Source of the DNA: Naegleria gruberi
Taxonomy: Eukaryota
Length of the DNA: 2,045 nucleotides
NCBI GenBank assembly: GCA_000004985.1
Contig: GG739293.1
Reading direction: 5' to 3' (one strand)
Position 1 is the stretch's first letter. Each line of letters opens with the position of its first letter. The notes below the pieces were generated by a model. That model was not told where the DNA came from. It searched no databases and saw only the letters and a list, made by a program, of their open reading frames with translations. Of the stretch, positions 1 through 2,045 are shown in pieces. Position numbers and translations under genes: made by a program.

Positions 1-2045
1 TGAACTAAATGATTTAAGTAATGAAAGAGCCTCAAAATCAACATCGTTAGCTTTGGAGCCAATTTAAGGTTTTTAACACTATTAATTCCTTCATCATTTC
101 CATAACACAAAGTCCAAACGGAATCAAATGCAATTTTTGATTGCTTGGATTTGAAATAGAACTGGCACTCAGAAGATTGACTATTAGTTTTGTGAATAAG
201 TTGTGTTAATAAATATCCTGTTAGAGATTCGAAACTGGTTGTGAGAGGAATATAAAATTGGTTGTACATGTCTTTGATACCTCTATAACAAGAACCATAC
301 TTTTTCTCCCATTCACTGCAAGAAATCTTCAACATTGTATATAACTGTTTAATGCTGGGCTTGAAAAAAAGATAGAAGTTAGCAAATGTATTTGTATCTC
401 CAATCCACTGAGCAACATAAATGTAATTGAATTCAAATTGAGGTGAAACAGACTGTAACTTGTTTTTCACTTCGTTATACTTTTCAAAATCACCATCTCT
501 ATGACCTGGGTGAATGATTGTACAGTAATACTGAAGAGGTAAATTGCTTCCACTATTTAAGTTGTTACTAATGGATCTTCCATCATCAAGACTAGTATCA
601 TATATCAAATTATTAGAAACTATAGATTCATTATTAAATGGATCATTGTAAAATAGATCTTGCAATAAACTCTTATCACTAAATAAACTACTGTTTTTGA
701 AATGATAGTTATATTTTTTCATACATTCCAACACCATGCGTGCATATTCAGAACTCATAAGCTTTGCATTAATATAATATTGATTTTCTATTTGTAAAAC
801 CTTGCTTCTTTCATCTGCACCATCATACAATCGGTGAATCAATCCTCTTTCTTTTACAGTTTCACCAAATGATTCTAAAGTGATTTTAAATAAACTCTGA
901 GAGGGTGGATCTGTTATCAAGTAGACAATTTGTCTCAATATGTAGAATTCTTTTTTGGTATTTGAAATATCTTCATCATCATCATTCATGAATTTTGTAG
1001 CATACCGTAAGAGATGTTGTTTACCATACTTATTTAAAATAGTATCATCCTCATTTACAATTCTCCACACTGCCAGAACTCTGTGGAAAAAACTCCAATC
1101 ACTGGAAAGAATAATACCTTTGGCATACTGTTTTAAATTTTCAGGAATATTTGTTAAAAACAAATCACAATCTTCGCTCTGTAATAGATAGCTTTCAAGT
1201 TTCTTAATTGAAGAAGGTTGTCTATTGTCATGCTTTCTCTTTGGTGTTTCAGTTATAGGACTATCATCTCCATTAGTACCTGTTGGTGATAAATCATTGT
1301 TGATGATAAAAGAATCATCGATGGTAGTTGCTTTTTGTTTGTCTTTAATGGATTTCCATAAACAGTAGAGAACAAATCTTTCAGCAGCTCTTTCATCCTT
1401 TAAATGCCCACAATTAAAGAAAAAAAACCATGTTATAATTGTTTTCTGTTTCTTAATTCCAATAAAACCATCCTCCTTTTCTAATGGTGGAGCACAATAA
1501 GATATGGCTGTTAAAAAGTTATGTAAATAATCTAATCTGGTAATATTTTGCTGAGTAGCCACACCTAAAAGTTTAGTATTAGCCAACCTATTGACTTCAT
1601 TGAATAGAAATTTATCCATCCTAAAGAGATATTTCTTCAGTATACACATGGTACTGTAAATCTTTTCTTCTCCTAAAATAGTAAATTCATTTAAAAGTTC
1701 CAACCCAGCATTAAACTTAAAATTTTCACTGAAAAAGTAGTGAAATAATAACTTATGAAGGGTATTTTTAGAGTTTTTCATGGGTGCCTCTTTCATACTA
1801 TATAGAAAAGATTTAAGTTTGCTCGAAAATGGTAAATTTTTAAAGGTTTTTTTAACTGCTTCACCAAATTCACAACATTCAACAATTACTTCATCTGTTA
1901 CCTGTGGAATTTTGTCGGCCACCACAAGATAAGAATTGAATCCTCCCACCACAACATGTTGTGTTGTGGGAATGAGTGTTTTGATATCTCCAACTTCAAG
2001 CTTTCCTTCTTTGGGTGTAACGACTGCAGTAATATGTTTTTGAGA
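1..2045 (-). CDS. Internal fragment of a large protein-coding gene, partial at both ends. 681 in-frame sense codons at 2045..3 with two leftover bases at 2..1. Product unidentified; a soluble protein longer than 681 aa.
   Basis: I reverse-complemented every 60-nt block by hand and found no TAA, TAG or TGA in this frame across the window. Translation begins SQKHITAVVTPKEGKLEVGDIKTLIPTTQHVVVGGFNSYLVVADKIPQ and ends LAPKLTMLILRLFHYLNHLV. With composition of about A=T=0.35 and G=C=0.15, a stop is expected in about 8% of random codons. The chance of 681 stop-free codons is therefore on the order of 1e-24. Every other frame is broken; the track shows only one 78-aa ORF. Codon use is coherent: AGA is 13 of 19 Arg codons, and TTA, AAA, AAT, GAT and ATT are favoured. 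The frame is open at both window edges, so the start and stop lie outside the window. Confidence 0.9.
364..370. repeat. Homopolymer A7 on the + strand (T7 on the coding strand), inside the CDS, encoding L-F-F (window residues 559-561).
   Basis: Sequence 361-373 is ttgaaaaaaagat. The reverse complement ctt ttt ttc is in frame. Confidence 0.9.
531..692 (-). other. Coding segment for a second low-complexity S/N/D-rich stretch (window residues about 452-505: SSLFSDKSLLQDLFYNDPFNNESIVSNNLIYDTSLDDGRSISNNLNSGSNLPLQ).
   Basis: Seen directly in the translation: Ser, Asn and Asp dominate and there are few large hydrophobics. It separates the central block from a C-terminal aromatic-rich block. Interpretation is compositional only. 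Confidence 0.35.
969..989. repeat. Short in-frame trinucleotide microsatellite: (TCA)4 at 973-984 with imperfect flanks. On the coding strand it is GAT GAT GAT GAA GAT, encoding the acidic patch M-N-D-D-D-E-D.
   Basis: Sequence 969-990 is atcttcatcatcatcattcatg. The codon phase was checked: D355 is 981-983, D356 is 978-980 and D357 is 975-977. Confidence 0.8.
1191..1319 (-). other. Coding segment for a low-complexity, probably disordered linker (window residues about 243-285: DSFIINNDLSPTGTNGDDSPITETPKRKHDNRQPSSIKKLES) with a short basic cluster PKRKH.
   Basis: Seen directly in the translation: a run rich in S, T, P, D, N, G and K with no hydrophobic core-forming stretch, flanked by aromatic and hydrophobic-rich blocks. 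Calling it disordered is an inference from composition only. Confidence 0.4.
1420..1427. repeat. Homopolymer A8 on the + strand (T8 on the coding strand), inside the CDS, encoding part of W-F-F-F-F (window residues 206-210).
   Basis: Sequence 1416-1430 is aaagaaaaaaaacca. The reverse complement tgg ttt ttt ttc ttt is in frame. Confidence 0.9.
1950..1963. repeat. Perfect 14-bp palindrome cacaacatgttgtg, with imperfect extension to about 1945-1968, inside the CDS. It encodes T-T-Q-H-V-V-V.
   Basis: Base-by-base pairing was checked around the centre catg at 1955-1958: seven perfect pairs, then a mismatch at 1949 and 1964. It contains the site ACATGT. Confidence 0.85.

Follow-up and report, generated by a model that had tools for sequence, protein, structure and literature searches.

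We analyze a 2,045-nt stretch of the Naegleria gruberi genome (contig GG739293.1 of assembly GCA_000004985.1; hereafter “the window,” meaning this stretch at its full length, which is an entire scaffold) and find that its minus strand is occupied by one open frame encoding part of a large protein from an orphan family. The family is defined by a series of collinear motifs spread over three conserved blocks, and in every relative that continues far enough, a further domain follows whose invariant residues resemble the active site of PD-(D/E)xK nucleases. We tentatively propose that the full protein may be a metal-dependent nuclease of the PD-(D/E)xK type, with the part encoded in the window as its non-catalytic front end. 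The libraries searched contain no earlier description of the family, its motifs, its distribution, or the nuclease hypothesis; GenBank already includes the sequence itself, as a partial protein without a name.

Proteins without annotation abound in these amoebae: of the 15,727 N. gruberi proteins, 9,090 are annotated and ~40% are not, and 26.7% of the proteins of Willaertia magna are ORFans (PMC6892926). One more orphan family will therefore be unsurprising to a specialist. There are three concrete gains. We define the family together with its conserved residues, a testable functional hypothesis is now available for eight formerly blank entries, and an existing N. gruberi gene model is demonstrated to be too short.

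The open frame and the deposited gene model

Frame 0 of the reverse complement contains 681 codons without a stop (window 3..2045, minus strand) and runs off both ends of the scaffold; the remaining five frames carry 39-91 stops each. Given the base composition of the coding strand, the probability of a stop is 0.082 per codon, i.e., about one stop is expected every 12 codons, and the probability that 681 codons stay open by chance is ~6e-26. Over 300 shuffles, the longest open stretch had a mean length of 77 codons and a maximum of 158. The G+C content at codon positions 1, 2, and 3 is 0.37, 0.30, and 0.26, and that of the whole window (~31%) fits the 33% reported for N. gruberi (PMC6892926). 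The minus-strand frame is a genuine gene, and for practical purposes any other reading of it is ruled out. Because the frame leaves the scaffold at both ends, its product is an internal fragment of a protein whose true gene is cut on either side. The same overrun explains why a listing of open reading frames (ORFs) in the window contains only short plus-strand entries; we reject these ORFs of 47-78 amino acids (aa) as antisense chance ORFs lying within the long minus-strand frame. Scans of the window for tRNAs, Rfam families, and tandem and dispersed repeats returned nothing of note. A 19-nt imperfect palindrome with overlapping arms (79% complementary; window 1940-1973) lies within the coding region and is most likely due to chance.

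The GenBank entry, “predicted protein, partial [Naegleria gruberi]” (P0001, 460 aa; window 270..1649, minus strand), is 100% identical to the window protein over aa 133-592, the model beginning at Met133 and ending at Asp592, and no other close database match exists. Similarity to an N. gruberi paralog, P0002, covers window aa 74-660, past both limits of the model. Together with the frame that stays open over the whole scaffold, this homology means that the P0001 model is too short and under-calls the coding region.

Family membership and conserved blocks

Searched exhaustively with phmmer (HMMER), a library of 1.84 billion representatives clustered at 50% identity returned eight proteins including the self-match; close orthologs, e.g., in N. 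fowleri, may be hidden within its clusters. The seven relatives have HMMER E-values from 5e-36 to 1.5e-11 and are 22-36% identical to the window protein. One is the N. gruberi paralog (P0002; XP_002671977, UniProt D2VVG6, locus tag NAEGRDRAFT_59334; 1,842 aa; phmmer E 5.5e-36), two come from W. magna (P0005 and P0006), and four come from eukaryotic metagenome or transcriptome data: P0003 and P0004 on two contigs (L001 and L002) of a single JGI metagenome sample (3300062347), P0007 in Logan assembly SRR32607936 (L003), and P0008/P0009 in a EukProt transcriptome. Both N. gruberi and W. magna belong to the Naegleriidae, and the contigs of the remaining family sources are AT-rich (29-35% G+C). A word-indexed homolog search, queried with the protein and with the profiles of the core and the C-terminal domain, returned the self-match, P0004, and one new fragment, and missed P0002, P0003, and P0006, all present in its own query alignment. 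This search is unreliable for such an AT-rich, low-complexity-laden family, and its negatives therefore carry little weight here. A pattern scan of metagenome contigs yielded no confirmed relatives.

The relatives lie in cellular surroundings. L001 (38 kb) and L002 (25 kb) are AT-rich eukaryotic contigs (34% G+C) on which genes for a DDX60-like helicase, Vps4, TAF2 (1,505 aa), and a CH-domain protein are found as uninterrupted ORFs, which indicates an intron-poor genome. On a 531-kb contig (L004), the W. magna gene adjoins a cytochrome P450 gene and other cellular genes. The family is cellular and narrowly distributed. Beside P0007, six consecutive short ORFs (44-100 aa) on the opposite strand (L003:2135-3467, minus) look like one intron-containing or frame-broken gene. 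Two members, 22-37% identical to each other, occur in each of three genomes (P0002 and the window gene; P0005 and P0006; P0003 and P0004), and these divergent pairs suggest that the lineage has kept both products of an old duplication.

No known family accounts for these proteins. With the window protein as query, Pfam gave no significant match (best, DUF7132 at E 0.002, 18.6 bits versus a cut-off of 27), and NCBIfam, PADLOC, and PHROGs gave none at all. We reject both DUF7132 and p55_CTD (Pfam, E 0.95) as chance matches, each being below the cut-off, confined to the window protein, and absent from the relatives; when all family members were scanned with Pfam at E up to 10, no domain was found in the relatives. 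A PDB sequence search at E up to 1 had no match, the family profile had no significant match among PDB chains, and Foldseek with the AlphaFold2 model found nothing below E 1 in the PDB or below E 0.1 in BFVD. A literature search for the locus tag of the paralog found no paper. The first-pass annotation, made from the window sequence, had described a protein of no recognized family that was possibly lineage-specific, and its view holds up well: no confident match to a characterized family emerged in the Pfam, NCBIfam, PADLOC, PHROGs, and PDB searches, none of the seven relatives is annotated, and those that can be named are Naegleriidae. Its compositional statements are likewise accurate. The 681-aa translation contains exactly 13 Cys and 7 Trp, has no Walker A, GxSxG, CxxC, or HExxH motif and no transmembrane segment (the highest 19-residue Kyte-Doolittle mean is 1.04), and is enriched in aromatic residues in its C-terminal block (17.6% at aa 506-681 vs 13.2% overall).

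Alignments of the eight family sequences (A1 and A2) show high conservation in three stretches (aa 148-227, 288-427, and 508-660); the stretches between them, aa 228-287 and 428-507, are poorly conserved and gap-rich. An AlphaFold2 model built from the eight-sequence alignment has a mean predicted local distance difference test (pLDDT) score of 50.9 (a single-sequence model, with a mean of 36, was useless); its better regions are aa 130-240 (pLDDT 65-77), 290-360 (~80), and 505-610 (65-79), while both linkers and aa 1-125 score below 50. Three blocks joined by two linkers, as first proposed from the translation, match both the conservation profile and the model confidence, except at the N-terminus: block 1 had been drawn over aa 1-242 and stands from about aa 128 onward, whereas aa 1-125 lack both conservation and a confidently predicted fold and bear only a faint similarity to three relatives.

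The shared module starts near window aa 128, which is where the short forms (619-804 aa) begin. The long forms, namely the window gene, P0002, P0005, and P0006, have additional upstream sequences that are only faintly alike. In the window, this N-terminal extension (aa 1-127; 1665..2045, minus strand, as are all features below) is an open frame with faint similarity to the long forms only, and an “F-LL-H-I/F” motif appears in its weak local alignment to the upstream regions of P0002, P0005, and P0006. Outside the shared core, P0002 has weak ankyrin repeats (aa 783-865; PDB phmmer E 0.0015) and P0006 has weak leucine-rich repeats (aa ~900-980; E 0.018), both unreported by Pfam.

Block 1 (aa 128-243; 1317..1664) is modeled as five helices, and E150, R153, Y173, G193, G213, D217, and E222 are invariant in it. 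The most conserved motif of the protein, GHLKDERAAERF (aa 213-224; 1374..1409, coordinates verified by translation), forms a loop and then the start of a helix in the model; G213, D217, and E222 are invariant within it, H214 and R223 are kept in 7/8 members, and the family consensus around it is FNYGHLKDERxAERF. Variable linker 1 (aa 244-285; 1191..1316) has an alignment occupancy of 0.48-0.64, consists of 70-80% polar residues, and ranges from 0 to ~90 aa across the relatives. Block 2 (aa 286-430; 756..1190) is modeled as helical, includes the best-modeled part of the protein at aa 290-360, and carries the motifs DWxxFHxVLAVWR, YL..DPP, LY...D.RG, and N.YY.N. The invariant residues of the first of these are I312, F320, L324, W327, and R328, and the window copy reads FHRVLAVWR at aa 320-328 (1062..1088). 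Variable linker 2 (aa 431-505; 531..755) is Asn/Ser-rich, with an occupancy of 0.39-0.75, an identity of at most 0.22, and low-entropy windows starting at 441-450 and 470-482.

Block 3 (aa 506-660; 66..530) is modeled as a beta-alpha-beta-beta unit followed by helices and ends in WTLCxG. DSSP assigns strands (E) and helices (H) in the model at E508-513, H519-533, E542-548, E553-559, and H565-617 (pLDDT 65-79), and the conserved residues are Y506, P513, D519, W547, W579, S585, and W644-T-L-C. Further invariant or near-invariant positions in the protein are T169, W206, W317, N331, D411, R413, N421, and Y423. The last 21 codons (aa 661-681; 3..65) correspond to a spacer that precedes the next domain in the relatives. 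The three blocks were also compared as possible internal repeats, and this was rejected (hhalign probability at most 0.1%). All of the collinear motifs (E..R / Y / FNYGHLKDERxAERF / DWxxFHxVLAVWR / YLxxDPP / LYxxxDxRG / NxYYxN / WTLCxG) are present, in this order, in the window protein, which on sequence grounds is a member of the Heterolobosea-restricted orphan family drawn up here. The window copy retains nearly all of the invariant and near-invariant family residues, which argues that the gene is functional.

A nuclease-like domain in the relatives and the proposed function

Every relative that continues beyond WTLCxG (P0002, P0003, P0004, P0006, P0007, and P0009) has a ~100-aa domain there, which lies ~35-135 aa downstream of that motif (e.g., L001:10001-12415, P0003 aa ~570-650) and has no annotation in any source. 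The window ends ~35 residues past its WTLCYG, ahead of the first conserved Glu of this domain, which thus lies outside the window; the window gene may continue into it. The alignment of the domain (A4) has K3, E8, W33, D48, W51, E65, and K67 as its sole invariant columns, with the consensus [quoted passage not shown]. The E, D, and ExK residues do not vary among the six relatives that reach this far, and a Logan fragment (P0012), retrieved with the profile of the C-terminal domain, keeps them as well. From a reading of the sequence only, the pattern of hydrophobic and polar residues around these motifs fits a strand-strand-strand-helix arrangement, and the A4 pattern as a whole may be read as a helix with an acidic residue, a hydrophobic hairpin, a strand that starts with a hydrophobic residue plus Asp, a following strand with E-x-K, and a helix. 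In PD-(D/E)xK nucleases, the catalytic residues are an Asp starting core strand 2, (D/E)-x-K in strand 3, and usually an acidic residue in helix 1, and a hydrophobic residue often stands in place of the Pro of the motif (PMC3424549).

Searches of the C-terminal domain against Pfam, PHROGs, NCBIfam, and, with its profile, the PDB gave no significant match to PD-(D/E)xK families, the best match being HamA at E 0.035 for one member only. Such negatives are consistent with the behavior of this superfamily, whose members commonly escape sequence searches (PMC3424549).

For the parts within the window, the model offers several leads to a fold. Block 3 has weak structural neighbors in ACT, RRM, and SPOR domains and Cas6 (low-probability Foldseek matches in the PDB) and in the VP35 interferon-inhibitory domain (VP35 IID), and we infer from the model that it may be a ferredoxin/RRM-like alpha/beta unit. 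The helical part in the window may have an HD-like helical fold and is probably not a canonical HD enzyme. Conserved polar residues in blocks 1-2 are E150, R153, Y173, H214 (7/8), D217, E222, R223, R328, N331, D411, and R413, and H214, D217, and E222 cluster in FNYGHLKDERxAERF. The family probably joins known folds in a new arrangement.

If the full protein is a nuclease of the PD-(D/E)xK type, its layout would run from optional repeat extensions through an HD-like helical domain, interrupted by a disordered loop, and a ferredoxin/RRM-like domain to the PD-(D/E)xK domain. The front end encoded in the window would then hold, recognize, or position a nucleic-acid substrate or a partner protein, and the charged patch formed by E150, R153, H214, D217, E222, R223, R328, D411, and R413 would be a candidate ligand- or phosphate-binding site. 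The window gene is a “long form” with extra N-terminal sequence, and other long forms have weak ankyrin or leucine-rich repeats. The more comprehensive claim, that this is a new nuclease family of heterolobosean amoebae in which a PD-(D/E)xK domain is joined to a ligand-less, HD-derived helical and RRM/ferredoxin-like front end, with two ancient paralogs per genome, is doubtful when taken as a whole. If it were true, it would add to the PD-(D/E)xK superfamily a family whose combination of domains is unreported and whose distribution is limited to Naegleria-type amoebae, a group that includes the human pathogen N. fowleri. Such a lineage-specific nucleic-acid enzyme could serve lineage-specific genome defense, DNA repair, or RNA processing, and might be of use as a taxon marker or as a tool for studies of genome maintenance in Discoba.

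The same observations can be read differently. The protein might be a non-enzymatic scaffold or adaptor, i.e., a lineage-specific helical protein with other proteins as its binding partners, in which the E...D...ExK pattern is structural or marks a dead nuclease fold and the HD-likeness reflects generic helical packing. The lack of a significant match to any enzyme family, the missing HD ligands, the weak ankyrin and leucine-rich repeats of the long forms, and the low confidence of the AlphaFold2 model all fit this account, and inactive PD-(D/E)xK folds such as RecC are known (PMC3424549). However, the four catalytic-type charged residues are strictly invariant even though the sequences are only 21-44% identical to P0003, which argues for retained chemistry, and the nine residues of the charged patch, a conserved polar set, suggest a ligand site. 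On balance, we consider a scaffold rather unlikely.

It is improbable that the helical core is itself catalytic, as a divergent phosphohydrolase of the HD/PDEase superfamily with a non-canonical site made of H214, D217, E222, and their neighbors, with nucleotides or nucleic acid as its substrate, whether or not the downstream nuclease domain is present. The HD superfamily is defined by its H...HD...D metal ligands, and blocks 1-2 of the eight members have neither an HD doublet nor any conserved His beyond a single one; this one, H214, is kept in 7/8 members and replaced by Thr in W. magna P0006, and the position expected for an upstream His is variable. At E up to 10, neither the Pfam HD/PDEase models (all members) nor the HD chains of the PDB (family profile) gave a match.

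A mobile-element or giant-virus gene, which would explain the tiny, unplaced scaffold of only 2,045 bp and the lack of cellular relatives beyond one lineage, and which might be suspected since some mobile elements carry PD-(D/E)xK nucleases, is very improbable: no relative was found in IMG/VR viral contigs (pattern scan), PHROGs, or BFVD (none below E 0.1), the relatives have housekeeping genes as neighbors on contigs of 25-530 kb, the copy number is low, with the closest N. gruberi paralog only ~30% identical, the window has no notable terminal or internal repeats, and no transposase, reverse-transcriptase, or integrase Pfam domain occurs in the window protein or its relatives. It has been suggested that unknown giant-virus genes are among the ORFans of these amoebae (PMC6892926).

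Comparison with known systems

One system for comparison is the N. gruberi paralog P0002, itself unannotated. Its BLASTP alignment to the window protein (E 1e-48, 26% identity) is collinear from window aa 74 to 660, and the two have the same motifs. P0002 differs in its length of 1,842 aa, in a long N-terminal region with the weak ankyrin repeats, and in possessing the C-terminal E...D...ExK domain.

Set against the HD phosphohydrolases (YhaM, YfbR, HDDC2, and SAMHD1-like deoxynucleoside triphosphatases, as well as cyclic-nucleotide phosphodiesterases), the window family lacks the H...HD...D signature, and in the window model, which is of low confidence, a disordered insert of ~40 aa splits the domain.

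A further comparison is with the PD-(D/E)xK superfamily (e.g., archaeal Hjc, VRR-NUC/FAN1, ERCC4/Mus81, and HamA). The complete relatives show what read as the canonical residues in canonical order and spacing, with E-x-K 17 residues after the Asp, apparently in the next strand, and then a putative helix. No described member of that superfamily has a counterpart of the helical plus alpha/beta module that lies upstream in the window family. FAN1 has a large helical region upstream of its C-terminal nuclease, and the window family resembles it in this respect, with a helical region upstream of its C-terminal nuclease-like domain.
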